Positions 24,461 through 62,080 of a DNA stretch of 64,000 bases are shown here, in pieces. The DNA is from an uncultured bacterium (lineage in GTDB: Bacteria > CAIWAD01): assembly GCA_903910645.1 (NCBI GenBank), contig CAIWAD010000113.1, positions 45,564 through 109,563 of the forward strand, written 5' to 3'. The notes below the pieces were generated by a model. That model ran no database searches and was not told the origin of the DNA. It saw only the letters and a program-made list of their open reading frames with translations. Made by a program: the position numbers and the translations under genes. Each line of letters opens with the position of its first letter. The stretch's first letter is position 1.

Positions 24461-24477
24461 TTGCAAGAGTTGTGCCA
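24461..24477 (-). promoter_or_regulatory. Sigma54 (-24/-12) promoter, exact consensus, oriented toward the T9SS-cargo/FGE operon
   Basis: Minus-strand reading TGGCAC-AACTC-TTGCA. It lies ~150 nt upstream of the ATG at 24313. Confidence 0.5.
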
Positions 24478-43858: not shown

Positions 43859-46501
43859 ATGAGCCATCGCTTGCTGATCCCGCTGATGGAGAGCAGCCAC
43901 AAGGGCTGTCTGCTCACGGGTCCACAGGGCATTGTGGCGGTGAACGCGGCACTGGAAGCCATGTGCGGCCTGGGCGCCGCCGTGTTGCTGGGCAGGGATC
44001 CCGCAACCCTCATCAGTCCGGCACCTCGCCCGGGCTTCCGCGGCATGGCGCTGCTGGACGCTCAGGACGGCGGACGGCTGCTGGAATGCCAGTGCCACGG
44101 CGGGGAGGACGAGTGGCTGGTGATCCTGGGCGATCCCGCCAGTTTGGACGCCGAGCAACTCTCGGGACGCCTGCAGACCATTCTTGAGATCTCCCGCAAA
44201 ATGGCCGGCGCCGCGGACACGGGCGAACTGCTGCGGGAAATCACGCGGGCCTGCCGCCATCTGGTGGACTCCCATGACACCACCATCTACGGGCTGGCTC
44301 CCGAGGGAGACCGGCTCATCCCCCTCTTCACCGACGCCCCGGATTGGGGCGATCTCACCATGAGTTTCGAAATCCCGCTGGGCACGGGCCTTACCGGCCA
44401 TGTGGCGCGCACGGGACAGGCGACCATCGTCAACGATCCTGCCTCCAGCCCATTGGTGGTGCAGGTTCCGGGCACTCCCGACGAGGCGGACGAAGTCTTG
44501 ATGAGCGTGCCCCTGGTGGCGGGGGAGCGCGTGCTGGGCGCCATTACACTGGCGCGTCCGGTGGACAAGCCCTTCGCCGTAAGTGATCTGGAGATCATCA
44601 GCATCCTGGCCGGACAGGCCGCCGTGCTTTTGGCCCAGACCGAGCTCATCCATCTCATCGCCGAATCCGAGCACCAGTTCCGCAGCCTGGTGGAGAATGC
44701 GCACATCGGCCTGTTCCGTCTGAACCCAGACGGAAGCGTGGTGGGCGTGAATCCCTATGTCTGCCGCGTGCTGGCGCTGCCATCGGCGCTAGATGTGGAA
44801 CCCCGCCGCATCTGGGGCAGTGAGCGCGCCCACCAGGATTTCATGGCCCGCCTGGCGCAGGATGGCGTCGTCACCGATGAACCGGTCACCACCATGAGTG
44901 GCGACGGCCGGGTGGTGGAGTTGCTGGTGTCGGCACGCCGGGTGGAGGGGCAACAGGAGTTCGAAGGCAGTCTGCGGGACGACACGGAGCGCCACCACCT
45001 AGAGCTGGAGAGCCGGGCCCGCCTGGCGTTCCTGGACAACCTGCTCTCCCAATTGCCATTGGGTCTGGTGGTGCTGGATCCGGGTGGCAATGTGCGGCAA
45101 CACAACGCCTTCTTCGTCCGTCTGCTTGGCTTGTCTTCCACAGATGAGGCCGCGGCGGCCTTCGAGAGCCTGCGCCAGCGTCTTCCGGAGATTGCCCGGC
45201 TGTGGCAGCGCGCCCTGCGCAGGGAGGCCGGCCGGGCCGAGGAGCTGGCCCTGCCTGCTGATTGCTGCGGCGATGGCGGCCTGCGCCACATTTCCGCCAC
45301 CACGGTGCCCATGAGCAACCAGGCTGCCGTGCTCACGGATGTGGTCTTCCTCTTCGAGGATGTCAGCGAGCGCCGCCAACTGCGCAACCAGCTGATCCAG
45401 CGGCAGAAGATGGACAGTGTAGGCAGTCTGGCGGGAGGCCTGGCCCATGACTTCAACACCATCCTTTCCGGCATCCTGGGCAACACGGGACAGCTCCGTC
45501 GCCTGGCGGATGGCCAAGAGGAGCTGACTCCGCCCCTGGACACCATTGAACGCAGTGTGGCCCAGGCCGCCCAGCTTACTCGGCAGCTCCTGGGATTTGC
45601 CCGCAAAGGATCGGAAAGCATGGGCGCGGTAAGCTTGAACACCGCCGCCGTGCACAGCCTGGATCTGTTCCGTCGCACCATGAAGGCGGGAATCCGTCTG
45701 GACGAGGATCTGGCCCAGCAGCTTCCCCCCTTGCGTGGCGACGCCATGCAGGTGGAGCAAGCCATCCTGAATCTGCTTATCAACGCCGCCGACGCCATGG
45801 ATCAGGGCGGCGTGATCAGTGTGCGCACGCGGCTGAGGCTGGGGGATCCCAATGCCCATGCCGAGGGGCGGACGCCGGTGGAGCGTTGGCTGGAGGTGGA
45901 GATTCAGGACACGGGCACGGGCATTCCCGATGAGCATCTGGGCAAGGTCTTCGACCCCTTTTTCACCACCAAGGAAAAGGGCCAGGGCAGCGGGCTGGGC
46001 CTGGCCATGGTCTTCACCATCATGCAACGGCACGGTGGACGGGCTGAAATCCAGAGCCGTGTGGGTTACGGCACGCGGCTCAGGCTGCTCTTTCCCGCCC
46101 AGGAAGCCGCCGAGAGTTCCACCGCGGAAGTGGATGCCAGTGCCATGGTGTGGGTGGCCGACGACGACGAGGTCCTGCGCACCATGCTGCGGCGCGTGCT
46201 GGAGAGCCTGCGTTACCGCGTAAAGGTGTTCGACGGCGGCGCCTCGCTGCTGGAGGCCCTCCGCCAAAGTCCCGGCGACCCGGACATCTTCCTGCTGGAT
46301 GTGCTCATGCCCGGCATGAGCGGCATCGAGCTGCGCCATGAGATCGCCGGCCTGCGGCCGGATCTCCGTGTGGTCTTCTGCAGCGGCTACACGCAGGACC
46401 AGCAAGAAGAGCTGATGGGCCTGCCCGGCGTGAAGGGCTTCGTGGGAAAACCCTTCACCATTTCCACCATGGCGACACTTATGCAGCGCGCCCTCAGTTG
46501 A
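43859..46501 (+). CDS. Hybrid sensor histidine kinase (GAF + PAS + HisKA + HATPase_c + C-terminal REC)
   Basis: H-box HDFNTILSGI, G-boxes GSGLGL, and receiver WVADDDEVLRTML...DVLMPGMSG. Confidence 0.85.
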   Translation: MSHRLLIPLMESSHKGCLLTGPQGIVAVNAALEAMCGLGAAVLLGRDPATLISPAPRPGFRGMALLDAQDGGRLLECQCHGGEDEWLVILGDPASLDAEQLSGRLQTILEISRKMAGAADTGELLREITRACRHLVDSHDTTIYGLAPEGDRLIPLFTDAPDWGDLTMSFEIPLGTGLTGHVARTGQATIVNDPASSPLVVQVPGTPDEADEVLMSVPLVAGERVLGAITLARPVDKPFAVSDLEIISILAGQAAVLLAQTELIHLIAESEHQFRSLVENAHIGLFRLNPDGSVVGVNPYVCRVLALPSALDVEPRRIWGSERAHQDFMARLAQDGVVTDEPVTTMSGDGRVVELLVSARRVEGQQEFEGSLRDDTERHHLELESRARLAFLDNLLSQLPLGLVVLDPGGNVRQHNAFFVRLLGLSSTDEAAAAFESLRQRLPEIARLWQRALRREAGRAEELALPADCCGDGGLRHISATTVPMSNQAAVLTDVVFLFEDVSERRQLRNQLIQRQKMDSVGSLAGGLAHDFNTILSGILGNTGQLRRLADGQEELTPPLDTIERSVAQAAQLTRQLLGFARKGSESMGAVSLNTAAVHSLDLFRRTMKAGIRLDEDLAQQLPPLRGDAMQVEQAILNLLINAADAMDQGGVISVRTRLRLGDPNAHAEGRTPVERWLEVEIQDTGTGIPDEHLGKVFDPFFTTKEKGQGSGLGLAMVFTIMQRHGGRAEIQSRVGYGTRLRLLFPAQEAAESSTAEVDASAMVWVADDDEVLRTMLRRVLESLRYRVKVFDGGASLLEALRQSPGDPDIFLLDVLMPGMSGIELRHEIAGLRPDLRVVFCSGYTQDQQEELMGLPGVKGFVGKPFTISTMATLMQRALS

Positions 46502-48833
46502 GGACGCGGGCCAGCACTTCCTCCAGACGGGACACGCCCACGATCTCCAGGTCGGCGCGGATTTCCGCCGGAATCTCCTCCACATCCTTCAGGTTGTCCG
46601 CCGGGGCAAGAATGGTGCGGATGCCCGCCCGGTGGGCGGCCATCACTTTCTCCCTCAATCCGCCGATGGGCAGCACCTTGCCCCGCAGGCTGAGTTCGCC
46701 CGTCATGGCCACATCGTGGCGCAGGGGCCGGTGGCTGAGCAGCGAGACCAGGCAGCTGGCAATGGCAATGCCCGCCGAGGGGCCGTCCTTTGGCGTGGAA
46801 CCCTCGGGGAAGTGCAAGTGCAGATCCGTGGTGCGGTGGAAGTCGGGATCAATGCCCAGCTCCGCCGCGTGGCTGCGGATGTAGCTAAGGGCAATCTCGC
46901 CGGATTCACGCATCACTTCGCCCAGACTGCCCGTCAGGCGCAAATGGCCGCCGCCCGGCATGGATCCCGCCTCAATGAACATCAGGGCGCCACCATAGGG
47001 CGTCCAGGCCATGCCCGTGGCCACGCCCACCTCAGGCTGGCGATTGGCCGTCTCGGGCGTGATGCGGCGGTTGCCCAGCAGGTCCCGCACCACGGTGCGG
47101 CCAGCCTTCACATGAAGGTCCTCGCCTTCCGCCACGCGCCGCGCCACCTTGCGCGCCACGCTGCCAATGCGCTGCTCCAGTTGGCGAACCCCCGCTTCGC
47201 GCGTGTACTCTTCAATGACTGTGCGCAGACCCTCCGGCTGGAAGGCCAGCTGGGCACGCTTCAGGCCACAGGCCTCCAGCTGCCTCGGCACCAGGTATTG
47301 CCGGGCGATCTCCAGCTTTTCCGTGGGCAGGTAACCCGCCAACTGGATGACCTCCATGCGGTCACGCAGCGGCGCCGGAATGCGCTCCAGCTGGTTGGCC
47401 GTGGCAATGAACATCACCTGGCTAAGATCCACCGGCACTTCCATGTAGTGGTCGGCGAAAGTGTGGTTCTGGGCGGGATCCAGCACCTCCAGCAGGGCGG
47501 CGGCGGGATCGCCCTTCACATCGGCGCCCAGCTTGTCGATTTCGTCCAGCATGAAGACCGGGTTGGTGCAGCCCACCTCGCGCAGCTTCTGCACAATGCG
47601 GCCGGGCATGGCGCCCACATAGGTGCGGCGATGGCCGCGGATCTCGCTTTCATCATGCACGCCGCCCAGGGCCAGGCGCACGAAGCGGCGCCCCAGTGAC
47701 TCGGCAATGCTCTTCCCCAGGCTGGTCTTGCCCACGCCGGGAGGTCCGGCGAAGCAGAGGATGGGGCTCTTGCGTCCGCCGCCGGTGAGCTTGCGCACGG
47801 CGATGAACTCCAGGATGCGCTCCTTCACGGTCTCCAGGCCGTAGTGGTCGCGGTCCAGGATGCGCCGGGCGCGGCCCACATCATGCCGGTCGCGGTCCTG
47901 CTTGGACCAGGGGAATTGCACCAGCCAGTCCACATAGGTGCGGGCCACGCTGAACTCCCCGGACGAGGGGCTCATGCGCCCCAGACGACGCAGCTCGCGC
48001 AGGCCGCACTCACGCACACCCTCCGGCATGCCCTGTGCCTCGAAACGCTTGCGCAGCTCTTCCAACTCCGCCTGGGCATCCTCATCCTCACCCAGCTCGT
48101 GACGGATGACTTTGATCTGCTCGCGGAGGTAGTACTCCTTCTGGTTGCGGTCCATGGCGCTGGCCAGGTCGTCCTGGATTTTGCGCGACAGCTCCGCCAG
48201 CTCCACTTCCCGACGAAGCAGCTTCAGCACGGCCTTGGCCCGCTCCACCACGCCCAGTTCCCCCAGCACGCGCTGGCGATCCACCACACTGAAGCTGAGG
48301 TTGGCGCAGATAAGGTCCGCCATGCGACCCAGCTCCGGCACACTGCGCAGGGATTGGCGCAGCTCATCCCCCACCCAGCTGTTGTGCTGGCAGAAATCCT
48401 CAAAGGACTTCTGCAGGGCCTGACGGTAGCTCTCCGTGCGCACCGAGGTGCGCATGTCGTCGCTGTGGCGCTCCACCTTCACCATCAGGTGCGGCGAGCG
48501 GGCGGCCACCTCCTGGAAGCGCAGACGGCCCACACCCTGCAGCAACAAACCCAGGCTGCCGTCGGGCACGCTGAACATTTTCAGGACCTGGGCGGCGGCG
48601 CCCACCGGGGCCAGGCGGCCATTCTCCTCGTTCTCCTGCTTCAGGAAAACGGCCAGCATGCGGCTGCCGCGCAAGGCGTCCTGCACGGCGCGGATGAGGC
48701 GGGGATCGCTGACCACATAGGGCAGCACCAGTCCGGGAAACACCACCGCGTCGGTGACAGGCAACAGGTGCAGGACTTCGGGGAATGTGGTGGCGGGAAC
48801 CAGTTCCTGGCCCTCGGGCACATCGGTTCTCAT
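46494..48833 (-). CDS. lon: ATP-dependent Lon protease
   Basis: LON N-domain, AAA+ (GPPGVGKTS), and a protease domain with the catalytic S in PKDGPSAG. Confidence 0.95.
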   Translation of the reverse strand: MRTDVPEGQELVPATTFPEVLHLLPVTDAVVFPGLVLPYVVSDPRLIRAVQDALRGSRMLAVFLKQENEENGRLAPVGAAAQVLKMFSVPDGSLGLLLQGVGRLRFQEVAARSPHLMVKVERHSDDMRTSVRTESYRQALQKSFEDFCQHNSWVGDELRQSLRSVPELGRMADLICANLSFSVVDRQRVLGELGVVERAKAVLKLLRREVELAELSRKIQDDLASAMDRNQKEYYLREQIKVIRHELGEDEDAQAELEELRKRFEAQGMPEGVRECGLRELRRLGRMSPSSGEFSVARTYVDWLVQFPWSKQDRDRHDVGRARRILDRDHYGLETVKERILEFIAVRKLTGGGRKSPILCFAGPPGVGKTSLGKSIAESLGRRFVRLALGGVHDESEIRGHRRTYVGAMPGRIVQKLREVGCTNPVFMLDEIDKLGADVKGDPAAALLEVLDPAQNHTFADHYMEVPVDLSQVMFIATANQLERIPAPLRDRMEVIQLAGYLPTEKLEIARQYLVPRQLEACGLKRAQLAFQPEGLRTVIEEYTREAGVRQLEQRIGSVARKVARRVAEGEDLHVKAGRTVVRDLLGNRRITPETANRQPEVGVATGMAWTPYGGALMFIEAGSMPGGGHLRLTGSLGEVMRESGEIALSYIRSHAAELGIDPDFHRTTDLHLHFPEGSTPKDGPSAGIAIASCLVSLLSHRPLRHDVAMTGELSLRGKVLPIGGLREKVMAAHRAGIRTILAPADNLKDVEEIPAEIRADLEIVGVSRLEEVLARVLN

Positions 48834-49291
48834 GCCTGCTCCTCCCCGTGCCAGGTGACTTCAGATCCTTCCTGCCGAGGAATGCGGATGAGCAGCAAGC
48901 CATCACGGTAGCTGGCCGCCACTTCCTCCATGAGCAGGCCCGCCGGAAGGGGAATCCGCCGCTCGAAGCCGCCCGTGGAGATCTCCATGGCCAGCCAGCG
49001 TTCCTTGTCCGCCTCCACCACCTCGCGGCGCCGCCCCTGCACCACCAGCTCGTCCAGGCCGGTGGATAGGCGCACATCCTCGCGGCGAATGCCGGCCAGC
49101 TCCATCACCACCACCAGCTCCTTGTCGGTCATGACCAGGTCGGTGGGCGGGGTGAAGGCTCCCGCGGCGTCCAGCTCGTCGGTGCGGTTCTCCAGCAAGG
49201 TGCGGAAGCGACGCTCCAGCTCGGGGTCGGCGCTGCGGATCTGTTCCAACTGTCGGCGATCAAGCATGGATTTCTCTCCTGTGAGGGGCAT
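48830..49291 (-). CDS. Hsp20/alpha-crystallin small heat-shock protein
   Basis: ACD domain sequence. AAGGGGAG RBS. ATGA coupling with lon. Confidence 0.85.
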   Translation of the reverse strand: MPLTGEKSMLDRRQLEQIRSADPELERRFRTLLENRTDELDAAGAFTPPTDLVMTDKELVVVMELAGIRREDVRLSTGLDELVVQGRRREVVEADKERWLAMEISTGGFERRIPLPAGLLMEEVAASYRDGLLLIRIPRQEGSEVTWHGEEQA

Positions 49292-50429: not shown

Positions 50430-51350
50430 TCAGCCTGTGAGTTCACTCACCATGCCGCGCACACGCTCCCGCGATCCCTTGATGTCCCGCCGCATGGCGG
50501 CCAGCAGTTCACGCGTGCCTTCCTCGTCCAGCGCGGGCTTCATGCTGCACAGCACATGCCAGGCGGGATCCAGCTCCAGCTCCCACAGGCTGTCCTCGCC
50601 CAGGCAGCTCAGATCCTCATCCTTCACCAGGTGGTTGGCCATGCGCACGCAGGCCACCAGGTTGGCGCTGGGATGGGCTGGATCGAAGGCGTGATGTTGG
50701 CTGATGGCCGCGCTCAGGCTGTCCGGCAGTCCCCACTTGGCGGCCAGCTTCTCCCCCACATCGGCATGGTCCAGCCCAAGCAGGCGGGTCTCCGCCTCGA
50801 ACTGGGGCAGGCCGCGCCGGTGGGACAAATCCAGACAGTCGCGGAATTCAGCGTGGAAATGCTGGTCCAGGACCACCTTGCCCACATCGTGCAGAAGGCC
50901 TGCGGTGAAATCCACGCCACGGAAGTCCAGCCCGAAATGGGCCGCCACGCGCACGGCGATCTCCCCCGTGCCCACGCTGTGGGCCCAAAACTGCTCCTTG
51001 TCCAGGATGCGTCCACGAGTGAAGGCGTCGTCGAAGGAGCGCATGACCGAGATGGTGGTCACCAGGCGATGGATCTCCTTCGCCCCCAGCAGCACCATGG
51101 CCTCGTGCAGGCTGTCAATCTGCCGTGGGCGCCCGTAGATGGCGCTGTTGGCCAGCTTCAGCAGCCGCGCGGTCAGGGCGGGATCCTGCTGCACCAGTCC
51201 CATCAGCTCATCGATGTTGTAGTTGGCGTCGGACAACAGGCGCAACATGTCGGACACCACACGCGGCAGCGAGGGCAGGGTGTCCAGAGTGGCGATGCGC
51301 TCCAGAATGCGCTGGCGGCGCTCGTGCTCCATCCGCCGGGCTTCAGTCAT
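50430..51350 (-). CDS. HDOD domain signalling protein
   Basis: HDOD family similarity (LPSLPRVVSDMLRLLSD...HDVGK). Confidence 0.75.
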   Translation of the reverse strand: MTEARRMEHERRQRILERIATLDTLPSLPRVVSDMLRLLSDANYNIDELMGLVQQDPALTARLLKLANSAIYGRPRQIDSLHEAMVLLGAKEIHRLVTTISVMRSFDDAFTRGRILDKEQFWAHSVGTGEIAVRVAAHFGLDFRGVDFTAGLLHDVGKVVLDQHFHAEFRDCLDLSHRRGLPQFEAETRLLGLDHADVGEKLAAKWGLPDSLSAAISQHHAFDPAHPSANLVACVRMANHLVKDEDLSCLGEDSLWELELDPAWHVLCSMKPALDEEGTRELLAAMRRDIKGSRERVRGMVSELTG

Positions 51351-52023
51351 TGACCACTCCCAAGAAGCTTTGCACGCGTAACCCAAGTTCGCCAAGCCGG
51401 AAGGGCTTGGTCATGAAGCCCACATTGTTGTAATGGAAGGTCTCGAAGACCTGGCTCACGGAGGTGCTTCCCGTCATGAGCAGGACCGGCAGATCCGGCG
51501 AGCAGCTCTTGATCTCCATGAGGATCTTGAAGCCGTTCATGCGTGGCATGTAGACATCGCACAGCACCAGATCCGGGTGGCACTTGTGGAAGAGCTGCAT
51601 GGCCTCCAGCCCATTGTGGGCCTGGATCACCTCATAGCCCCGTTGTTGCAGATACCACGACACCGTGGCGTTGCTGTCCACATCATCCTCCGCCACCAGA
51701 ACGGTCTGCTTGCGCTGCGCAACGGATTCATTCGCCCGCGCGGCGGCGCCCTCCTGGCGGGCATTCTCGATCTCTCGCCGTTCGTCGATGCTGCGCGCCA
51801 GCAAGCGGGCCACCAGCTCGGGCCGTTTCATGGCCAGCTTGAGCAGCTCGTCACCGGAAGTGCACTTCTCCATCACAAGCTTCAGCATGGCGTCCTCATC
51901 GGTGAGCGAGGACAGGGCCAGCTCCAGGCCGCCCCCACCTTCCTCAGACAAGGTTGCCAGCAACTCGTCCTCATCCGTCCGCTGGGCGCCATGGACGGGA
52001 ACCACCTGCTCCGCGCCCTTCAC
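51343..52023 (-). CDS. Response regulator (N-terminal unknown region + C-terminal REC)
   Basis: REC motifs VLVAEDD...DVYMPRMNGFK. GTG start. Confidence 0.75.
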   Translation of the reverse strand: MKGAEQVVPVHGAQRTDEDELLATLSEEGGGGLELALSSLTDEDAMLKLVMEKCTSGDELLKLAMKRPELVARLLARSIDERREIENARQEGAAARANESVAQRKQTVLVAEDDVDSNATVSWYLQQRGYEVIQAHNGLEAMQLFHKCHPDLVLCDVYMPRMNGFKILMEIKSCSPDLPVLLMTGSTSVSQVFETFHYNNVGFMTKPFRLGELGLRVQSFLGVVND

Positions 52024-53312
52024 GATGCGGACCCCAGCATGCTGCGGATGCGCTCACCCAGCTCGCTAAGCCGGAAGGGCTTGGCCAGGAAGCTGACATT
52101 GCGGTACTTGGATGAGTTCAAGACCTCGGCGGCGGAGCTGTAGCCCGTCATCATGAGCATGGGCAGTTCCGGCACGCGGTTCTTCACCTCAAGCAAAAGC
52201 TTGAACCCATTCATGCGCGGCATGTAGACATCGCTGAGGATAAGGGCCGGACGGCGGGCCTTGAACAAGCTCATGGCCTCCACGCCATCCTCCGCCTGAT
52301 GGACTTCGTAGCCCTGCAATAGCAGGTAGTGGGCCGTGAGTTCGCGGATGTTCTGCTCGTCCTCCACCAGCAGCAGGACGGGCACCACATTGTCCTGGCT
52401 TACCCGGGCGCGGATCTGGCTGGCCAGTTCCGCCGGGCCGGAGGCCGTGGCGGCCAACAACGCGCTGATGTCCCTGGACAGGCGGCGCATGCCGCGATCC
52501 CCTTCGTCGGGGATTTGGATGATGCGCAGGCAAGGGTTGGAACGGCGCATCTGCGTTAGCAGGCTGGCATGCCGCTCGGCGCACACGCTGTCCACAATCA
52601 GGAAGTCCACTTCGTCGCTTTCCGCCAGGGTGCCGTTCTCACCCACGCGAAGCGGGCTGGCGCCCACATCCACCAGGGCCTCAAGCAGATCGCTCTGCTG
52701 GTCGGCCAGGCTTAGCAGCACGCGGATGCGGCTGTTCACCACGGGAAGCGCGGAGTCACCATCCGGAACGGGCAGAGTGGGCAAGCCCGCAGGCGGCGCG
52801 CTCTCACGCGGGGCCTTGGCCGGTTCCGGGGCGCGGGGCGTGGCGGCGGGCGTCCCCAGGGTGGAATTGAGCCCCTGGGAGCCTGCGGGCAATTCCGCCT
52901 GCTGGCGGAACTCCAAGGCACGCTGTTGCAAAGCGTGGAGGCGTTCCAGGTAGAAGCTGTCCGGTGTGTTGCGCGGCAGGTACTCGGCCAATTGGATCAG
53001 CGCCAGCTGCTCGCGCTCTTCGCGCAGCGCCACCCGGTCCGCGGGATCGGCCGAACCAATCACAATCACGCCGCCGGCGGCCATGCGCGGGAAAATCTCC
53101 CGGATCATGGTCATGGCCACCGTCACATCCCGGCGCTCCTCGCGCAGATCGAAAATGACCACATCCGGCAAGGCCGTGCGGTAGGCGGACAGGGCACCGC
53201 GTCCCACGGGAAAGAACTGCACGCGGCCCAGGCGCTCATCCCGGACGCTCTCGTCCAGGTGCTCGGCCCAGGTGGCGTCGCTGCTGATCAGATAGACGAT
53301 GGTGGACTTCAC
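52020..53312 (-). CDS. Multi-REC response regulator (two degenerate REC-like domains + canonical C-terminal REC), paralogous to the downstream regulator
   Basis: C-terminal REC shares the DVYMPRMNGFKLL motif with 51343-52023. GTG start overlapping the stop of the sigma54 activator. Confidence 0.7.
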   Translation of the reverse strand: MKSTIVYLISSDATWAEHLDESVRDERLGRVQFFPVGRGALSAYRTALPDVVIFDLREERRDVTVAMTMIREIFPRMAAGGVIVIGSADPADRVALREEREQLALIQLAEYLPRNTPDSFYLERLHALQQRALEFRQQAELPAGSQGLNSTLGTPAATPRAPEPAKAPRESAPPAGLPTLPVPDGDSALPVVNSRIRVLLSLADQQSDLLEALVDVGASPLRVGENGTLAESDEVDFLIVDSVCAERHASLLTQMRRSNPCLRIIQIPDEGDRGMRRLSRDISALLAATASGPAELASQIRARVSQDNVVPVLLLVEDEQNIRELTAHYLLLQGYEVHQAEDGVEAMSLFKARRPALILSDVYMPRMNGFKLLLEVKNRVPELPMLMMTGYSSAAEVLNSSKYRNVSFLAKPFRLSELGERIRSMLGSAS

Positions 53313-54832
53313 AAATGGCCTGAATGCTTGCTCTGTGCGTTGTGCGCGTGACTCTCCTTTGCCCTATCGGCAGGCGGGACGGGCAACTTGCGTGCCGACG
53401 GATCGGAACCGTGCCCTTTCGCCGGACTTTTCCGGCGGAACTGCGAAGGCTCAAGACCCAGGCGCTTCAGCTTGGCTTGCAGGTTCTTGCGCGCGATGCC
53501 CAGGCGCCGGGAACAGGCGGAGACATTGCCGTCCTCCTCTTCCAGCACGCGGGCCAGCAAGTCCTGCTCAAAGCGCTCCCGGGCCTCTTCAAGGGTAAGA
53601 CCTGCCAGATCGGCACCCCAAGGCGGATGCGGGGCCTCGGCGCCGGTGCGGCGATACTCCGGCGGCAACTGCGCCAGGCCCAAACTGTCGCCAACATGCA
53701 GGAGGCAGCGCTCTAGCAGGTTTTCCAGTTCACGAATGTTGCCCGGCCAATCCAGGTTGGCCAGGTGCTCCAGCAGCTCATCATCCACGCGGGGCAGCTC
53801 CCGCCGCAAGCGTTGGCAGTGACGGGCCAGGATGAAGTCCACCAGCTCCGGCAGGTCCTCGCGCCGTTCGCGCAAGGGAGGCAAATGCAGTTCCAGCACA
53901 TTCAGCCGGTAGTAGAGATCCTGGCGGAACTCGCCATCCGCCATGGCTTTGGACAGGTTGCGATTGGTGGCGCTGATGAGGCGGATGTTCACCTTGCGGG
54001 TGCGCGAACTCCCCACCGGCTCGAATTCCCGTTCCTGCAGCACGCGCAGCAGTTTGGCCTGCAGTTCGGGCCGCAGTTCGCCAATCTCGTCCAGGAACAG
54101 CGTGCCGCCCTCGGCTTCCGCCACGCGGCCCTTGCGATCCCTGTCCGCGCCGGTGAAGGCTCCGCGCACATGGCCGAAAAGTTCACTCTCCAACAGGGTG
54201 GCGGGAATGGCCGCCGCACTGACGCGTATGAATGGACCGACGCGGCGAGGGGAGAAATGGTGGATCAGGCTGGCCATCAATTCCTTGCCCGTACCGGATT
54301 CCCCAGTCACCAGCACGCTGGCATCGCTGTCCGCAATGCGGTTGATGGTAAGCTGCAAGAGGTTGTTCATGCGACGGTTGCGGCTGGCGGGAAGGCCCTG
54401 CTGCAGGCGTCGCAGCATTTCCGTCATCAGTTGACCGCCCCGGGAGGACAAGTGCAGATCCTGGGCAAGGACCTGGATGTCCGCCAACAAGCGGGGAAAG
54501 TCCACTGGTTTGGTGATGTAGCCCAGGGCGCCCTTGCGCATGGCGGCCACGGCATCGGGAATACTGCCATAGCCGGTGAACAGCATGACGCGTGTGCCCG
54601 GATGCTGGGCAAGCACCGCATCCAACAATTGCAGCCCGTCCATGCGCGGCATGCGGATATCAGACAGCACCAGCTGGGCGGGGGCCTCTTCCAACAGCTG
54701 CAGGGCTTCCCGGCCATCCATGGCTTGGCGCACGCGGTGTCCGGCCTCGACAAGAAGCTCGGAAACCACTTCGCGGACAACGCGCTCGTCGTCCACCACC
54801 AGAATGCTCAGCGGCGTATCAGTGCTGTCCAT
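53309..54832 (-). CDS. Sigma54-dependent transcriptional activator (REC + AAA+ sigma54-interaction + Fis-type HTH), NtrC family
   Basis: GESGTGKE Walker A, GAFTGA motif, and a C-terminal HTH. Confidence 0.9.
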   Translation of the reverse strand: MDSTDTPLSILVVDDERVVREVVSELLVEAGHRVRQAMDGREALQLLEEAPAQLVLSDIRMPRMDGLQLLDAVLAQHPGTRVMLFTGYGSIPDAVAAMRKGALGYITKPVDFPRLLADIQVLAQDLHLSSRGGQLMTEMLRRLQQGLPASRNRRMNNLLQLTINRIADSDASVLVTGESGTGKELMASLIHHFSPRRVGPFIRVSAAAIPATLLESELFGHVRGAFTGADRDRKGRVAEAEGGTLFLDEIGELRPELQAKLLRVLQEREFEPVGSSRTRKVNIRLISATNRNLSKAMADGEFRQDLYYRLNVLELHLPPLRERREDLPELVDFILARHCQRLRRELPRVDDELLEHLANLDWPGNIRELENLLERCLLHVGDSLGLAQLPPEYRRTGAEAPHPPWGADLAGLTLEEARERFEQDLLARVLEEEDGNVSACSRRLGIARKNLQAKLKRLGLEPSQFRRKSPAKGHGSDPSARKLPVPPADRAKESHAHNAQSKHSGHL

Positions 54833-55014
54833 GGGTGAAGGCCCAATCGATGCAAGGATTGGTCAACCGGTTCCAACTGCGTGACCAATGTACCCAGCGC
54901 CTGCTCCCAGCGCAATGCGGAAGGCTGGGCTCCTTTCAAAGCAAGGGAATGGCGCCTGGCTTGATCCTTGATGGAGACAGTGATTTTTCTCGCCCCGCCT
55001 GCCGACATTGGAGC

Positions 55015-55320
55015 ATGGTCGTCAAGCTTTTCGCCTGGAATCCCTATCGCTTCCACTGCTACGGCGTGCCCGGCTCCGGCATGCCCGGACTGGCGCCGGG
55101 GCCCGAGGACGATGCGGACGAAATCTGGATTGCCGACCTCTTCCCTGCGTGGATGATTCCCGGCCTGGCTCTGCATGAATGGGTGGAATTGAAGTGGGGA
55201 AGCCATCGGCTGGCGGTGGCGGCGGAACTTGTGTGTTACAACCTGCTCTGGCCCGCCTACCACCTTAGCTACTTGTGGATCGTGTGGCGCCATCCCTTGT
55301 CCAACAAACTCTTCGAATAG
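55015..55320 (+). CDS. Hypothetical small protein (101 aa)
   Basis: ORF with a GGAG upstream. Trp/aromatic rich, no family recognised. Confidence 0.3.
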   Translation: MVVKLFAWNPYRFHCYGVPGSGMPGLAPGPEDDADEIWIADLFPAWMIPGLALHEWVELKWGSHRLAVAAELVCYNLLWPAYHLSYLWIVWRHPLSNKLFE

Positions 55321-55331
55321 GCCCGCCGGGC

Positions 55332-56210
55332 TCAGTCGCTGTCTCCCTCCTCCAGCAGTCTGCGCAGCTTCTCCGCCAAACGGCGTGCGCGGAATCCCGT
55401 GACCGGTCGAATGCGCGCCCCCAGCTCCAATACCAGATCCCCCATGCCCTGGGCGGCGGGCAGGCCCTGTCCCTTCAAGCGGATGCGCTGCCCCTGCTGG
55501 CTTCCGGCGGGTAGATTCAAGTCCAGATTGCGGCCCTTGGGCGTGCGCAGGCTGTAGCTTCCGCCCGTCATGAGCAGGAGAGCGTCCACCTCCACAGTCA
55601 GGTGCAGATCCGACCCCTCCAGGCGAAGTCCAGCAGGCAACTGGGCGTGCAGCACCAGGATCAGGCGCCCTGCCGGCCCGCCATGGCGGCCGGGCAAGCC
55701 CATGCCGGGCAGGACCAATTCATCACCTGGAATGATGCGCAGAGGAAGTTTGAGATCCAGTGGAGGCTGGCTGCCCAGCTCCACGCGGAAGGATCCGCCG
55801 CCTTCAAACCGCTCCAGGGGCAGGGGGAGATGGCGCCGCAGATCCTGTCCCGCCTGGGGTCGAGGGGCCTCCGGACGCGGCCCTTCCGTGCTGTCCCGTT
55901 GCGGCCTGGGGCCCCCTTCCCGGGCGGCTGGTCGGGGCCGTGAAGGTCCAGGACGCGGAGCACCGCCGGCACGGGGTCGGTCGGCAGGGCCGGCCAAGCG
56001 CGCGTCATACGCGGCGCGCTGGGCGGGATCACCCAACACACGATATGCCTCATGCAGTGCTTTGAAGCGATCTTCCGCTTGAGGATCATTGGGATTGCGG
56101 TCCGGATGCCACTCCTTGGCCAGGCGCTTCCACGCCCGGCGAATGTCTTCATCCGAAGCCCCCGGCAGCAGACCAAGGCGCTGGTAAAAGTCCCCTGCGG
56201 CTTCCGCCAT
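55332..56210 (-). CDS. J-domain protein (CbpA/DnaJ-like, J domain + DnaJ C-terminal-like domain, no Zn finger)
   Basis: J domain DFYQRLGL...HPDRNP (HPD motif), a Pro/Arg-rich linker, and a C-terminal substrate-binding-like region. Confidence 0.8.
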   Translation of the reverse strand: MAEAAGDFYQRLGLLPGASDEDIRRAWKRLAKEWHPDRNPNDPQAEDRFKALHEAYRVLGDPAQRAAYDARLAGPADRPRAGGAPRPGPSRPRPAAREGGPRPQRDSTEGPRPEAPRPQAGQDLRRHLPLPLERFEGGGSFRVELGSQPPLDLKLPLRIIPGDELVLPGMGLPGRHGGPAGRLILVLHAQLPAGLRLEGSDLHLTVEVDALLLMTGGSYSLRTPKGRNLDLNLPAGSQQGQRIRLKGQGLPAAQGMGDLVLELGARIRPVTGFRARRLAEKLRRLLEEGDSD

Positions 56211-56592
56211 GGCAATCCCCCGTCCTGACATCCACTTCCAACATAATACCACGAAAGGCCGTGGGGCTTTGATCCATCCCTGAACTTCAGGCACAAGAAG
56301 AAGCCGGCATACCCGCCACCGACCTTCAGGATCCTGGGAAAGTCCCTTCAGCGGCTACGATGAAGCCCGCCAGGCGGCCATTTCAAGGGGATTCGCTGAC
56401 AGGGCAGCCTTGTCCCCCCCTTGCCCGCCACTCTGAGACCCCAGGGTTCCACTCCAGTGCCACGCGCTTTCAAAAAGGTGAATAGCCCAACCTGGAGCTG
56501 GTTCGATTCACCCATTTTGGTTCAGGCAACCTGTTGCGATTCAATCACTTCCACACTTGAGCGACTGACCAAGTTCCGAAGTTCGCAAGAGC

Positions 56593-56608
56593 TGGCACGG
56601 CCTTTGCG
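56593..56608 (+). promoter_or_regulatory. Sigma54 (-24/-12) promoter, exact match
   Basis: TGGCAC-GGCCT-TTGCG with correct GG-N10-GC spacing, 36 nt upstream of the ATG at 56644. Confidence 0.5.
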
Positions 56609-56643
56609 CTATGGGATTATCGACAAAGCAGCAGGAGGAAAAA

Positions 56644-56952
56644 ATGGCCTTTGCATCCCCTTCCCTTCCCGAGAGCGCCCATTTGGCCGACACGCTTCGC
56701 CGCTTCAAGATGCACAAGCGCACCTTGGAAGCACGCTTGCAGGCTGTGCGTGAGGAGAGGGACGACTTGCGCCACATGGTGAGCATCCCGGTGAATCCCC
56801 GCAGCCGTCAGCAGCCGCTGATGGATGTGGAAAAGGACAGCCGCCTGGTGGAGATCTTCGCAAAGGTGGACAAGGGCCGTTATTTCCAGCGTGATCTGGC
56901 GGAGGACATCAGTGAGAAGCTGATGGATCGCCTCTGGAGCATCACCTTTTAA
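56644..56952 (+). CDS. Hypothetical small protein (102 aa), candidate sigma54-dependent gene
   Basis: AGGAGGAAAAA-ATG RBS. Coiled-coil-like sequence with no Cys. Confidence 0.4.
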   Translation: MAFASPSLPESAHLADTLRRFKMHKRTLEARLQAVREERDDLRHMVSIPVNPRSRQQPLMDVEKDSRLVEIFAKVDKGRYFQRDLAEDISEKLMDRLWSITF

Positions 56953-57280
56953 CTCGACCTACCTTCTTGATCTGGCTGAGGTGACAGGCGTGGCCTGTCG
57001 CGGATCGGACGCCCGCCAGGGTTTCCGCTTCGCGGCGGGCCACCGCTTTATCAGCCAATTGCAATCCCCGCTATCGCTTTCATTTGCCCGCCGGGGCTGC
57101 CATCGCTGCGTAGGCCGGGATCTCTCTTCACCACAGATTCCCGCTGGCGCTTAACTGACGGACGGCGGGCCATGTTTCCCTTTCCCCACAACAGCAACGG
57201 GAACGGGAAGGAGTCGATAACTTGGTGGAGCAAGACCATGACGGCTTGACCACTTTGGCACTTCCAATCGCGAGGCAAAC

Positions 57281-58735
57281 ATGAACCGTGCACTGTGTTT
57301 GGCAACTCCCCTGCTGCTCCTGGGCGCGCTGCCCTTGATGGCCCAGGAGGAGGGAGCGGTCCCGGAGCAAGCTGCGGAAGGGATGAAGGCAGCCATGGGA
57401 ATCGGCGCCGTCACCATGGATGGCCAGACCTGGACCCAGATCGCCCTGCGGCCGGAGATTCCCATTGGCAAACTGGGCATAGCCCTGGACCTTACCCTGT
57501 ATTTCGACTCGGATGGCAACATCCGCAAGCAGGATTGGGATGAGGGCAAGGACCTGATCGAGAAGATCTACTACATCCGCTGGGGCCACAAAGGGGATAA
57601 CCTATACCTGAAGGCCGGCGCCCTGGATGATGTGACCCTGGGCTACGGCATGCTGGTGCGCCACTACGCCAACACGGTCGAGTACCCCGCCGTGCGCCGG
57701 GTGGGTGGCGAGTTCGACGTGAAACTGGGCGGCCCCCAGGTGGAAGGCTTCGTGGGCAATGTGCGCGAGCTGGACGGTCCCGGTCTCGTCGGCCTGCGCG
57801 CCAGCTACCCGGTCATTGGCAACCTGCGGGTGGGCGCCTCCTTCGTGATGGACGGCAACCTCTACGCCGGCATGGCCGACCAGGACGACGACCATGTTCC
57901 GGATCAGCTGGACCGTTTTCCCGACCACAACGACAGCGACGAATATGTGCTGTGGGATGATCTGCACACCGCGCTGGGGGATGGCGAGTTGTGGGAACGC
58001 ATGAAAGAGAGCGCCAGCTATCCCGGCGACGACTGGCTGGACAATCCGCTGGCGGACTATTCAAAAGCTGAAGAGAGCCTGCAGGCCATGGGGGCGGATC
58101 TGGGCTACGAGTTGCTGCCCAATCTGGATCTCTATTTCCAGGCGGCCAGCTTCACGGGTTATGGCACTGGCTGGGCGCCGGGTGTGCGCTGGCGGCCCTT
58201 CAACTGGCTGCAGGCCGGCGCCGAGTACCGCAACTGGGGCGAGCAGTTCATTGGGGATTTCTTCAACCGCACCTATGATGTGGAGCGCACCATTTTCCGC
58301 GGCGACAGCTTGTACACGCGGGAAGAGCTGCTGAAGGACGCCCCCGCCATGAGCGGCCTCTACGCCGACGCCAGCGCCAGCCTCTTCAACCTCATCACCT
58401 TCAGCGCGGCATGGAACACCATGAAGCCCAAGGACGCGGCGAATGCCGTGGACTGGAACAGTTTGTGGGGCGATGCCCGCTTGAATCTGGCCAAGGTGCC
58501 CAAGATCAAGGAGCTGAGCGCCTACTACAACCAGGTGGGCGCGGAGGATCTGCTGGACATCAAGAACGAGCACGCCGTGCACGGCCTGCGCGTTGGTTAC
58601 GAGGTGGCCCCGGGCGCCCTCATGCGCCTGGACTGGCGCACCACCTACACGGATCGCAATGGCGACGGTGAGATCAAGGGCGACGCCGAGGAGAACCGCA
58701 CCTTCCTGGTGGAGACCGTTTTCCAGCTGAAATAG
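57281..58735 (+). CDS. Secreted, probable outer-membrane protein of unknown family
   Basis: Signal peptide MNRALCLATPLLLLGALPLMAQE, beta-strand-rich alternating pattern, and a C-terminal aromatic (F-Q-L-K). Confidence 0.55.
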   Translation: MNRALCLATPLLLLGALPLMAQEEGAVPEQAAEGMKAAMGIGAVTMDGQTWTQIALRPEIPIGKLGIALDLTLYFDSDGNIRKQDWDEGKDLIEKIYYIRWGHKGDNLYLKAGALDDVTLGYGMLVRHYANTVEYPAVRRVGGEFDVKLGGPQVEGFVGNVRELDGPGLVGLRASYPVIGNLRVGASFVMDGNLYAGMADQDDDHVPDQLDRFPDHNDSDEYVLWDDLHTALGDGELWERMKESASYPGDDWLDNPLADYSKAEESLQAMGADLGYELLPNLDLYFQAASFTGYGTGWAPGVRWRPFNWLQAGAEYRNWGEQFIGDFFNRTYDVERTIFRGDSLYTREELLKDAPAMSGLYADASASLFNLITFSAAWNTMKPKDAANAVDWNSLWGDARLNLAKVPKIKELSAYYNQVGAEDLLDIKNEHAVHGLRVGYEVAPGALMRLDWRTTYTDRNGDGEIKGDAEENRTFLVETVFQLK

Positions 58736-58759
58736 TCGCCTGGCGGCTTGAACATGCAT

Positions 58760-58791
58760 GGGCCTCGTCCACCGGGACGGGGCCCTTTTTT
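58760..58791 (+). terminator. Rho-independent terminator
   Basis: GGGCCTCGTCC-ACCG-GGACGGGGCCC followed by TTTTTT. Confidence 0.7.
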
Positions 58792-59076
58792 ATGCTGGCC
58801 AAGACCACCCACTTTGGCTCAATTCCACCAATCCCGCCATGGGAAGTGCTTGACTCCAAAGCTGATTCCATTGGCACAGCACTTGCAATATGCAGGTCTG
58901 AGAAGGGCGGCCGTGTGGGGACGGCCCTGGCTGGCGGATCCGACCGGAGATGTTCCGTGGGGACGGTGAAGGCGTCCTGGTCCCGGTCCGCAGCTTTCCT
59001 TCCGGGAAAGTGGCCACGACAAAGCAGAAGGGCGGCGGCGATTGTAGGCAGAGTTCGCCCCCGACCGTTGAAGGAG

Positions 59077-59114
59077 GACCCGGATTCCAGGGGTGGGATC
59101 CGGGTCGTTTTTTT
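59077..59114 (+). terminator. Second plus-oriented terminator hairpin about 300 nt downstream of the first
   Basis: GACCCGGAT-(12 nt)-ATCCGGGTC followed by GTTTTTTT. Confidence 0.55.
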
Positions 59115-59132
59115 GATGGACTGGGACTTCGC

Positions 59133-59903
59133 CTACTTGCTGAGGCCCTTCAGCTTGGTGACCACCCAGGTGCCGCCACGGGTTTTATCCCGGGTGACTT
59201 CCAGGATGTCGTTGCGCGCGGCGTCCTCCAGGAACTCGCCGAAGTTGTTGTAGCCCAGGCTGCTTTCACTGAAGCTGGGGTTCTTGCGCTTGATCGTGTC
59301 CTTGATGAGGCTGGCCAGCAGAAGTTCCGTGCCTTCGCGCAGCAGGGCGTTCACGGCGCTGACCAGCTGCTTCATGGCGGAGAGCTTGTCCTTGGGAATG
59401 GTCTTGGTCAGGGAGCTCTCCTGGGCCTTCTCCTCCGCGCCCAGATTCTCATAGAACAGGAATTCGTCGCAATTCTCCACCAGCAGGTTGGAGCTGCTCT
59501 CGCGCATGCCAATGCCGATGATGGTCTTGTTGTTCTCCCGCAACTTGCTCACCAGGGGACTGAAGTCGCTGTCACCGGAAAAAATGACGAAGGTGTCGAT
59601 GTGCGAATTGGTGTGGCACAGGTCCATGGCGTCCACCACCAGACGGATGTCCGCACTGTTCTTCCCGGTCATGCTGCGCTTGGGGATTTCAATGAGTTCA
59701 ATGCCGTGGGCGTGAAGTTCGTCCTTGTACTTGGTGTAGAAATGCCAGTCGGCATAGGCGCGCTTGGTGATAATGCGCCCCTTTTCGAGCAAGCGATTGA
59801 GCACCATGCGGATGTCCAGCTTGGTGCCATTCTTGGATTTGAAGCCGATGGCGATGTTGTCGAAGTCGATGTACAAGGCCAGGTTGCGTTGGGTCGTTGT
59901 CAT
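59133..59903 (-). CDS. NYN-domain protein with a C-terminal OST-HTH/LOTUS domain
   Basis: LALYIDFDNI...DTFVIFSGDSDFSPLV NYN (PIN-like) motifs, plus a C-terminal LOTUS-like region. Confidence 0.8.
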   Translation of the reverse strand: MTTTQRNLALYIDFDNIAIGFKSKNGTKLDIRMVLNRLLEKGRIITKRAYADWHFYTKYKDELHAHGIELIEIPKRSMTGKNSADIRLVVDAMDLCHTNSHIDTFVIFSGDSDFSPLVSKLRENNKTIIGIGMRESSSNLLVENCDEFLFYENLGAEEKAQESSLTKTIPKDKLSAMKQLVSAVNALLREGTELLLASLIKDTIKRKNPSFSESSLGYNNFGEFLEDAARNDILEVTRDKTRGGTWVVTKLKGLSK

Positions 59904-59984
59904 GTCTCGTTCCTTGCTCCACCCTTCCGCGCTGCAGAAGGGAGGGTGGTCTGTGCTGTGGGACCGGCGCCCGCCGGCCCTTGA

Positions 59985-61151
59985 TCAATCCTCGGAGTCG
60001 CGGTCCTGCCGCAGGCTCCGACCCTTGCGCGGCGTCGCCATGCCGCGATGCTTGTCCGCCCAGCTCCACACGCTGCTGGTGGAGGCGGGCAGGGGACCGT
60101 CCCGCAGGGTCTCCCTGGCCAGTACTTCGGCCATATCCGGCGGCATGGGAGCCTCGAAATCCAGCTCTTGCCCCAGCACCGGATGGCGGAAGCCCATGCG
60201 CCAGCTGTGCAGGGCCTGGCGGCGGATGCAGTCCAGGTAGTGGTGGGCGCGGCTCTGGCGGTCCCCCGTGAAACCCGCCCGTCGCAGGTCCCGCCCGTCG
60301 TAGTCCGCATCCCCGAACACGGGGTGGCCCAGATGTTTCATATGCACGCGAATCTGGTGCGTGCGCCCGGTTTCCAGTTTCAATTCCATCAAAGAGAGGA
60401 AGTCGAAGCGCGCCGTGGTCTTGTAGTGGGTCACCGCGTGGCGGCCAATGGGTTCCGGCACCACGGCCATCTTCAGGCGATCCCGGGGATCCCGCCCGAT
60501 GCCCGCGTCCACGCTGCCCTGCAACTGGCGCGGACTTCCCCACACCAGGGCGCGGTAAATGCGATGGATCTCCCGGTCGTGGAACATGCGGCTAAGCTCT
60601 CGCACGGCCTCCGGTGTTTTGCCAATCACCATCAGTCCCGTGGTGTCCCGGTCCAGACGATGCACGATGCCCGGGCGGAAGTCCTCCCCCGCCGACTCCG
60701 GCATTTCGTCCAGGTAATTCATCAACGCGTTCACCAGGGTGCCGTTGAAGTTGCCCCGGGCCGGATGCACCACCATGCCCGCCGCCTTGTTGATGACCAT
60801 GAGGTGCGCGTCCTCGTGCAAAACCTCCAGGGGGATGTCCTCGGCGGTGATGAGGGGACGGGGCTTGCGCGGCACCCGCACCAACAGCCGCTCGCCAGGG
60901 GAGACGCGCTGGCTGGGTTTCAGCACGGGACGGCCCTCCACCAGCACCATGCCCTCTTCGATGATGTGCTGGATGAAGGTGCGGCTCACGAAGCGGATCT
61001 GGCGGGAGAGCCACAGGTCCACACGCTCGGGGGACTGGTTTGCGCCAATTTCCAGCTGGATCTCCTCCACCTGGATGTGCTCCGGATCCGGGGGCGTGGC
61101 GGGAGGCGCCGACGCGTAGCGCACATAGCTCTGGCGGCCCCGCGGGCTCAC
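59985..61151 (-). CDS. rluD: 23S rRNA pseudouridine synthase, RluA family (RluD-like) with S4 domain
   Basis: S4 motif RVDLWLS and catalytic HRLDRDTTG. Start chosen as the GTG overlapping the lspA stop (GTGA). The long 602-aa ORF in the track is an artefact of read-through into the lspA region. Confidence 0.8.
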   Translation of the reverse strand: MSPRGRQSYVRYASAPPATPPDPEHIQVEEIQLEIGANQSPERVDLWLSRQIRFVSRTFIQHIIEEGMVLVEGRPVLKPSQRVSPGERLLVRVPRKPRPLITAEDIPLEVLHEDAHLMVINKAAGMVVHPARGNFNGTLVNALMNYLDEMPESAGEDFRPGIVHRLDRDTTGLMVIGKTPEAVRELSRMFHDREIHRIYRALVWGSPRQLQGSVDAGIGRDPRDRLKMAVVPEPIGRHAVTHYKTTARFDFLSLMELKLETGRTHQIRVHMKHLGHPVFGDADYDGRDLRRAGFTGDRQSRAHHYLDCIRRQALHSWRMGFRHPVLGQELDFEAPMPPDMAEVLARETLRDGPLPASTSSVWSWADKHRGMATPRKGRSLRQDRDSED

Positions 61152-61699: not shown

Positions 61700-62080
61700 C
61701 TATTCCTCGGGGGTCTTGCAGTTCACGCAAAGCTTGGCCGTGGGCACAATGCGCAGGCGCTGCTCGGCAATCTGGCAGCCGCACTTCACGCACACGCCGT
61801 AACGGCCCTCTTCAATGCGCTCCAGGGCCATGTCCACGGTCTGCACGAATTTGCCCTGGCGGGAGGCGAACATGAAGGTCTTCTCCTGCTCCTGGGCGTC
61901 CGTGCCCTGGTCCGCCATGTGGAACGAGTAGGTGCTGCTGTCTCCAGCTGCCTGGGAAAGGCCCTCCTCCAGCTCCTTCTTCAGGTAGTCCAGCTCCTCA
62001 AGCGCCTCCTTGCGCTTGTCCAGGAGGATCTGGCGGAACTCCTCAAGCTTCTCGGGCGAGTAGAATGGGTTGCTGATCAT
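61700..62080 (-). CDS. dksA: DksA/TraR-family C4 zinc-finger transcription factor
   Basis: CVKCGCQI...AKLCVNCK C4 finger and a coiled-coil N-terminus. GGAGGA RBS. Confidence 0.85.
   Translation of the reverse strand: MISNPFYSPEKLEEFRQILLDKRKEALEELDYLKKELEEGLSQAAGDSSTYSFHMADQGTDAQEQEKTFMFASRQGKFVQTVDMALERIEEGRYGVCVKCGCQIAEQRLRIVPTAKLCVNCKTPEE

Follow-up and report, generated by a model that had tools for sequence, protein, structure and literature searches.

A stretch of 64,000 nucleotides (nt) from an uncultured member of the Delongbacteria (contig CAIWAD010000113.1; the whole stretch is called the window below) contains a small open reading frame (ORF) for a protein of 102 amino acids (aa), preceded by a -24/-12 element of the type used by sigma-54 RNA polymerase. 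Comparison with orthologous loci strongly supports the view that this sigma-54 promoter drives the small ORF. Further upstream lies a palindrome whose distance from the promoter is closely held, and which is likely to be the enhancer. Taken as a whole, the locus is read as a monocistronic, sigma-54-dependent unit with its enhancer at the distal palindrome, the small protein being an accessory of a chaperone module; we put the probability of this reading at roughly 0.6. The data directly support the promoter sequence with its conservation, the locked position of the palindrome, the coding nature of the ORF and the conserved gene order around it.

The sigma-54 promoter and the start of the small gene

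The promoter sequence (CTGGCACGGCCTTTGCG) spans positions 56592-56608 and, with its flanks, fits the consensus YTGGCACGrNNNTTGCW at every position except the final W. An earlier note on this DNA, made from the letters alone, had described an exact -24/-12 element at 56593-56608, 36 nt from the ORF, and both its position and its sequence proved correct, the -12 end lying 36 nt from the ATG. Exact copies of the core TGGCAC-N5-TTGC are found three times in the window (at 24463 on the minus strand and at 56593 and 58872 on the plus strand) against an expectation of 0.40, and none of 100 shuffled sequences reached three.

The intergenic DNA of 12-13 distinct loci is largely unalignable, and phylogenetic footprinting reveals five conserved blocks within it. 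In all 13 orthologous loci the -24/-12 core is placed 50-51 nt ahead of the ATG; it is exact in ten, the remaining three having TGGCCC (L003 and L008) or TGGCCT (L016) in the -24 region. The more distant homologues, with 31-34% protein identity, carry TGGCAT-N5-TTGC (L018) or TGGCAC-N5-TTGC (L019), at spacings that differ from those of the orthologues; their contigs are too short to reveal the surrounding genes. A core of the form TGGC(A/C)(C/T)-N5-TTGC was found 5' of the homologous ORF in all 15 loci that have upstream sequence. This conservation, together with the fixed distance in 13 loci, bears out the proposal of the earlier note that a sigma-54 promoter serves the small ORF, and expression in vivo would accordingly be expected to depend on sigma-54. 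A search of positions 56100-57400 gave no match to a sigma-70-type promoter, and sigma-54 promoters were looked for and not found before hsp20-lon or before the neighbouring dnaJ-like gene.

Transcription is predicted to start near 56619. The leader block that follows (CAAAGCAGCAGGAGGAAAAA) is nearly invariant across the loci, despite the divergence of the remaining intergenic region, and it carries the Shine-Dalgarno sequence AGGAGG at 56633-56638, in keeping with the strong ribosome-binding site and the 102-aa, cysteine-free ORF (56644-56952) noted previously. The ATG at 56644 is taken as the start codon (the stop codon is at 56950-56952) because another in-frame ATG, at 56611, has no ribosome-binding site and lies 5' of the predicted transcription start. 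In comparison with four orthologues, substitutions fall preferentially at the third position of codons (12/2/24 and 17/12/32 at the first, second and third positions, to give two examples), and the small ORF is therefore translated.

Upstream elements and the candidate activator

The best candidate for an enhancer is likely the 18-bp palindrome TGAGACCCCAGGGTTCCA, with the consensus TGyTAC-N6-GTArCA and the more general form TGnnAC-N6-GTnnCA, which occurs a single time per locus in 13 loci. In nine loci the palindrome stands 157-160 nt from the -24 T, and in four others the spacing is 145, 147, 148 and 148 nt, giving two classes about one helical turn apart; the distance to the start of the dnaJ-like gene on the other side varies from 84 to 321 nt. 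The symmetric arms are perfect in L011 (TGATAC/GTATCA), in L003 and L008 (TGCTAC/GTAGCA) and in L016 (TGTTAC/GTAACA), and L001 and L013 have TG, the inverted form, in place of the central CA. The fixed spacing, the symmetric arms and the central inversion together fit an enhancer that binds a dimer and has to keep to one side of the helix with respect to the promoter. A scan with a position weight matrix gave one site per locus, scoring 14-26 bits, and a next best score of at most 8.5 bits; a search for further copies, including around the other sigma-54 promoters and over the rest of the window, found none. In its sequence and spacing the distal palindrome matches what is expected of an NtrC-type enhancer, namely a dyad site of about 17-18 bp, 80-200 bp upstream of the promoter and in helical phase with it.

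A second palindrome, AAGTTCCGAAGTT, is found immediately upstream of the promoter. In its general form, AA(C/G)TTCCGAAGTT, it ends 9-10 nt 5' of TGGCAC in 11 loci and stands at other offsets in L016, L018 and L019; a copy of ACTTCnnAAcTT is present near the promoter in the distant loci L018 and L019. This proximal palindrome, rather than the distal one, might be the site of the regulator, acting as a close-range activator or a repressor, with the distal palindrome serving something else. Of the upstream elements, it is the proximal palindrome that is retained in the distant loci L016, L018 and L019, and it is the sole match in the window at up to two mismatches. In addition, relatives of it with the sequence GAAGCT(G) precede the other two sigma-54 promoters of the window and the P2 promoters of other loci. 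We nonetheless consider this alternative unlikely. The offset of the palindrome varies among the distant loci, where it ends 4, 9-10 or 20 nt upstream of the promoter, and its sequence is degenerate in L003 and L008. Its centre is also unusually close to the start for an activator that works by looping, and the helical-phase-locked spacing of the distal palindrome would otherwise be hard to account for.

Between the two palindromes lie the repeats that the earlier note had taken as the enhancer, a pair of direct repeats with CGATTCA cores (56503 and 56536) and a GTGAAT/ATTCAC inverted pair, 60-100 bp upstream of the promoter. These repeats do exist: a repeat search recovered a 20-nt direct repeat with 15 of 20 matches and a spacing of 33 nt, as well as a 12-nt inverted repeat. 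The direct repeats had been misplaced by 7-12 nt, since GGTTCGATTCACC is at 56500-56512 and not at 56488, and GTTGCGATTCAATCAC is at 56533-56548 and not at 56526; GTGAAT and ATTCAC are at 56478-83 and 56506-11. A spacing of about three helical turns, a distance suited to an activator and the overlap of the second copy with a partly conserved TTG-N5-CAA block speak for an enhancer here. However, when the 430-nt intergenic region is shuffled with its dinucleotides preserved, 8% of the shuffles contain a direct repeat of this quality within 60 nt, and the first copy and the inverted pair are conserved in no orthologous locus, not even in the closest relative, L011, where the protein is 91% identical, while other elements are conserved. 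The proposal that these repeats form the enhancer is thus not borne out, and we regard it as very unlikely. Within the second copy, most of the 12 loci that were aligned retain the TTG, the CAA and the T that trails them, and this block is possibly a site for a bending protein resembling IHF, or for a second factor.

The most likely candidate for the activator of the small-ORF promoter is the phosphorylated form of an NtrC-family response regulator encoded nearby on the minus strand. It carries the motifs ESELFGH...GAFTGA and is the sole GAFTGA protein in the window. Its gene lies 1.8 kb from the small ORF in the window, and no more than 2 kb away in 9 of the 12 loci with enough flanking sequence. 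The helix-turn-helix sequence GNVSAC.RRLGIARKNLQ.KLK is invariant in seven orthologues of the regulator, which is consistent with the invariant TG..AC/GT..CA arms of the distal palindrome, though not a direct link between the two. An activator of this family, with a REC/HDOD signalling module, had been expected 2 kb away (50430-54832) from the letters alone, and Pfam searches confirmed it. The genes that follow it on the minus strand encode two REC proteins and an HDOD protein, and then come dus, hsp20 and lon, so that the anticipated hsp20-lon pair does follow, with dus before it. The features of the locus are collected in Table 1.

Table 1. Positions and strands of the features discussed, numbered from the first letter of the window
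Feature	Position	Strand	Basis or remark
Sigma-54 promoter, -24 TGGCAC and -12 TTGC (TGGCACGGCCTTTGCG)	56593-56608	+	Sequence and conservation
Distal palindrome (TGAGACCCCAGGGTTCCA)	56434-56451		Candidate upstream activator sequence, centred near -176 relative to the predicted start
Proximal palindrome (AAGTTCCGAAGTT)	56571-56583		Conserved, centre about -42
First copy of the direct repeat (CTGGTTCGATTCACCCATTT)	56498-56517	+	Specific to the window
Second copy of the direct repeat, holding TTG-N5-CAA..TT (56534-56550)	56531-56550	+	Block partly conserved, centre about -80
Leader with Shine-Dalgarno sequence (CGACAAAGCAGCAGGAGGAAAAA)	56620-56643	+	Near-invariant in 13 loci
102-aa ORF, orphan helical protein, no cysteine	56644-56952	+	Conserved length and frame, codon-position bias
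Stem-loop followed by TTTAT	56986-57051	+	Probable terminator or attenuator of the small-ORF transcript
484-aa protein with signal peptide, uncharacterised family	57281-58735	+	No Pfam match; probably has its own promoter
CbpA-type (class B) J-protein: J domain and DnaJ_C, no zinc finger	55332-56210	-	Pfam and NCBIfam
NtrC-family response regulator: REC, AAA+ (Sigma54_activat) with GAFTGA, HTH_8	53309-54832	-	Pfam and NCBIfam; candidate activator
Two REC proteins and an HDOD protein	50430-53312	-	Pfam
hsp20	48830-49291	-	Follows dus
lon	46494-48833	-	Follows hsp20

Several other features of the activator region were noted in passing. One gene of the activator operon (52020-53312, minus strand) encodes a 430-aa protein with a C-terminal REC domain and about 310 N-terminal residues that have no Pfam match, and no histidine kinase is visible in the activator cluster. 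A 101-aa ORF without a Pfam match (MVVKLFAWNPYRFHCYGVP...YPLSNKLF; 55015-55320, plus strand) separates the activator gene from the dnaJ-like gene and is conserved in L001, L003, L004, L005, L008 and L016. A conserved TGCCGACATTG stands only some 5 nt ahead of its start codon, so that its transcript may be leaderless.

The probable transcript end, the downstream gene and the other sigma-54 promoters

The small ORF is followed by a long stem-loop with a fold energy of -59.3 kcal/mol (z = -4.4; 56986-57046), and a hairpin with a T-run, clearer than that of the window, is present in the same gap in L011, L003, L008 and L010. The next gene, on the same strand, encodes a secreted protein of 484 aa, and a motif of the type GGTAnnTTG is conserved in all loci (L001-L016) 35-60 nt before its ATG (at about 57215-57225, plus strand, in the window). 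Because of the hairpin with its T-run and this promoter-like motif, the small ORF is read as probably monocistronic, with possible read-through.

The GGTAnnTTG motif resembles the -7 element of Bacteroidota, TAnnTTTG, and may be a housekeeping promoter motif of the phylum, as judged by its conserved position before the 484-aa gene. A similar motif, GGTACATTG, precedes the activator operon at 54886-54894 (minus strand). The exact pattern occurs only twice in the window and is not enriched there. The homologues of the 484-aa protein are all hypothetical proteins, found in Delongbacteria and in metagenome-assembled genomes (MAGs) labelled Calditrichaeota, Caldithrix or Cloacimonadaceae. Several family members of 700-760 aa bear a FecR domain (PF04773), and these fusions hint at an envelope-signalling role for the family.

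One might instead suppose that the sigma-54 promoter drives a two-gene operon, composed of the small ORF and the gene for the secreted protein, and that the small protein is an accessory of that envelope protein rather than of the J-protein. Orientation and order of this gene pair do not vary among the 13 loci, and the T-run after the hairpin in the window is weak. On the other hand, the gap between them (97-328 nt) holds stable hairpins with T-runs and then the conserved promoter-like motif, which is also found before the activator operon. Moreover, the small protein has no signal peptide, and L017 has a homologue of the 484-aa protein with neither the small ORF nor the dnaJ-like gene. A two-gene operon therefore seems rather doubtful.

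The two remaining exact sigma-54 cores of the window are of interest in their own right. The first (TGGCACAGCACTTGCA; 58872-58887, plus strand) lies 137 nt past the stop codon of the 484-aa gene. Beyond it come about 215 nt that lack a conserved ORF, and then a strong intrinsic terminator (GACCCGGATTCCAGGGGTGGGATCCGGGTC and a run of seven T residues), with the end near 59113. The segment 58872-59113 (plus strand) is a candidate for a sigma-54-dependent small RNA, and no sigma-54 target other than this non-coding unit and the small ORF is found nearby. A sigma-54-like promoter is found at the equivalent place in L001, L006, L007, L010 and L011. L011 conserves both the transcribed sequence and the terminator, L001 does so in part, and the promoter of L007 precedes a Por_Secre_tail gene. 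The candidate RNA has a fold energy of -107 kcal/mol (z = -2.5), and an Rfam search of 54000-60000 returned nothing relevant, leaving it unmatched. An 11-mer of the small-ORF leader (CGACAAAGCAG, 56621-56631) recurs within the candidate at 59017-59027, an observation made post hoc, and the candidate also has a hairpin rich in C and U (GCUUUCCUUCCGGGAAAG, about 58989-59010) for which Shine-Dalgarno sequences could be pairing partners; these may reflect a common site for an RNA-binding protein or a regulatory pairing. The third core (TGGCACAACTCTTGC; 24463-24477, minus strand) lies about 150 nt upstream of an ATG near 24312 on the same strand, and the sequence on its upstream side, AACTTCGAGAGAAAGCTG, is similar to the proximal element found at both other promoters.

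The small protein, its proposed role and comparison with known systems

The 102-aa protein belongs to a small family. There are 16 close homologues, all without names, from MAGs that are labelled Candidatus Delongbacteria or are mislabelled. A profile search without filters, run against 1.84 billion cluster representatives, found only eight clusters, and scans of GTDB genomes and JGI metagenomes added only seven further loci. The homologue of L016, which has 97 aa and the same synteny, was missed by the word-indexed search. An AlphaFold2 (AF2) model of the protein has three helices (residues 9-36, 61-77 and 83-100), as anticipated by the earlier description of a helical protein, and the N-terminal helix is the best-conserved part of the family. 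The same description had likened the protein to a DksA-type coiled coil, a comparison that failed: DksA/TraR proteins are built of a coiled coil and a C4 zinc finger (PF01258), whereas the small protein has no cysteine and no match in Pfam, NCBIfam or the PDB, and hhalign against the DksA/TraR protein of the window itself (61700-62080) gave a probability of 0.1%. Membership of the CbpM family of modulators (MerR_2, PF13591) likewise found no support, there being no Pfam match and no PDB fold match to the AF2 model.

A better guide to function is gene order. Gene tables were drawn up for eight homologue loci, and L016 was added by further inspection. The conserved core consists of the dnaJ-like gene (leftward), the small ORF (rightward) and a gene for a protein of about 485 aa (rightward), with the activator cluster usually beyond the dnaJ-like gene. 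The dnaJ-like gene, which probably starts at the ATG at 56210, is divergent from the small ORF and adjoins it in every one of the 13 loci, L006 and L007 among them, where no activator cluster is nearby. This strict adjacency, together with the lack of both genes in L017, argues that the small ORF tracks the J-protein gene and not that of the secreted protein. Our best guess is that the small protein, induced by a signal, assists or modulates a chaperone and proteostasis module made up of the J-protein, Hsp20 and Lon. The guess is made because the small ORF strictly adjoins the gene for a CbpA-type J-protein, with hsp20 and lon nearby, and it draws on CbpM as an analogy, not as a homologue.

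The small protein could also be the founder of an unrecognised family of regulators dedicated to a sigma-54 regulon, since a sigma-54 promoter apparently serves its gene in 15 of 15 loci, down to a protein identity of 31%. It would then be a feedback modulator, either a PspA-like anti-activator of the NtrC-type ATPase or a FlgM-like anti-sigma factor, with the same module driving the RNA of about 215 nt. We think this quite unlikely; if true, it would amount to a new stress circuit in an uncultured phylum, linking a REC/HDOD phosphorelay to proteostasis by the J-protein, Hsp20 and Lon.

The narrower proposal that the protein is a diverged FlgM-type anti-sigma factor could appeal to the similar size of FlgM (about 100 aa), to the sigma-54 dependence of flgM genes in several polar flagellates and to a C-terminal stretch, SRLVEIFAKVDKGRYF..DISEKLM, that aligns with the FlgM signature KVxxLKxxIxxGxYxVDxxxIAxKL (sharing GxY...I(A/S)xK(L/M)) and is exactly the stretch selected by hhalign, but it is most improbable given a probability of 0.4% (P = 0.14) in hhalign against an alignment of 15 annotated FlgM/PF04316 proteins, no match to Pfam FlgM (PF04316) for any of 17 family members at E <= 10 and none in NCBIfam for the window protein, the absence from FlgM of the conserved N-terminal helix, and the lack of flagellar genes in 13 neighbourhoods (+/-4 to 8 kb, by called genes or ORF inspection). 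The same stretch (RLVEIFAKVDKGRYF..DISEKLM) was also aligned by hhalign to three single FlgM sequences, and the resemblance is a lead and not an established relationship. As a separate observation, the distant homologue P0074 of L018 is followed on its 3' side by a 112-aa ORF (458-796, plus strand) with DTIEISSQGQRELQ, which recalls the central FlgM motif D.V.LS..A..L; this ORF has no Pfam match, and the contig is only 1 kb long.

Returning to a monocistronic unit whose product assists the chaperones, we infer the identity of the activator, the looping, the termination and the function of the small protein as parts of the following scheme. Sigma-54 RNA polymerase would bind the -24/-12 element and form a closed complex. 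A dimer-binding enhancer protein, most likely the phosphorylated NtrC-family regulator, would occupy the single palindrome about 176 bp upstream. The intervening DNA would loop, possibly aided by the block near -80, and ATP hydrolysis by the activator would then open the promoter. Transcription from about 56619 would yield a 25-nt leader whose strong Shine-Dalgarno sequence would allow efficient translation of a cytoplasmic protein of three helices. Finally, the hairpin at 56986-57051 would stop most transcripts before the next gene, which would have its own promoter.

Several points weigh against this scheme. Classical NtrC enhancers have two or more sites, but two or more adjacent sites are not present here. 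The conserved palindrome near -42 has no place in the standard model and could be the real activator site or else a repressor site. The activator is assigned by proximity, and its gene is not in the fetched flanks of L006 and L007; a six-frame motif search of the window found neither rpoN nor any protein with an RpoN box. The proposed function of the small protein has no support from homology or fold, as no match was found in Pfam, NCBIfam or the PDB. Lastly, the T-run after the hairpin in the window (TTTAT) is weak, so that read-through into the 484-aa gene is possible.

The classical NtrC-type sigma-54 promoters include glnAp2 of E. coli, served by NtrC, and the psp promoter, served by PspF and IHF. 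The locus described here shares with them the -24/-12 element, a dyad site (17-18 bp) over 100 bp upstream, an element in between that is well placed for a bending protein and a nearby gene for a REC-AAA+(GAFTGA)-HTH_8 protein. It differs from them in having one upstream site per locus, an additional conserved palindrome near -42 and an orphan small protein as its target, and in belonging to uncultured Delongbacteria. To our knowledge, nothing has been reported on gene regulation in the Delongbacteria, none of which is in culture.

A link between NtrC-type regulators and proteostasis has a precedent in Myxococcus xanthus, where the two-component system HsfA/HsfB is reportedly a sigma-54 activator of the heat-shock gene lonD. 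Here too an NtrC-type regulator is found with proteostasis genes, hsp20-lon being located 3' of the activator cluster, with a J-protein gene adjacent; unlike the case of lonD, no sigma-54 promoter was found before hsp20-lon in the window. A parallel for the small protein is provided by the CbpA/CbpM pair of E. coli, a class B J-protein and its modulator of 101 aa. As in that pair, a protein of about 100 aa is always encoded beside a CbpA-type J-protein with no zinc finger (13 of 13 loci). However, the small protein has no sequence kinship with CbpM/MerR_2, the two genes are divergent rather than in one operon, and the small gene has a sigma-54 promoter of its own.

The unit is conventional in architecture, a new example of a familiar mode of regulation that here serves an orphan protein. 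The locus offers a clean, phylogenetically footprinted sigma-54 promoter with a candidate enhancer, an unexplained operator-like palindrome and a defined target, and it is well suited as a test case for reporter and in vitro work with the neighbouring activator. If the small protein modulates the chaperone or the activator, it would be a new small regulator in the control of bacterial proteostasis.

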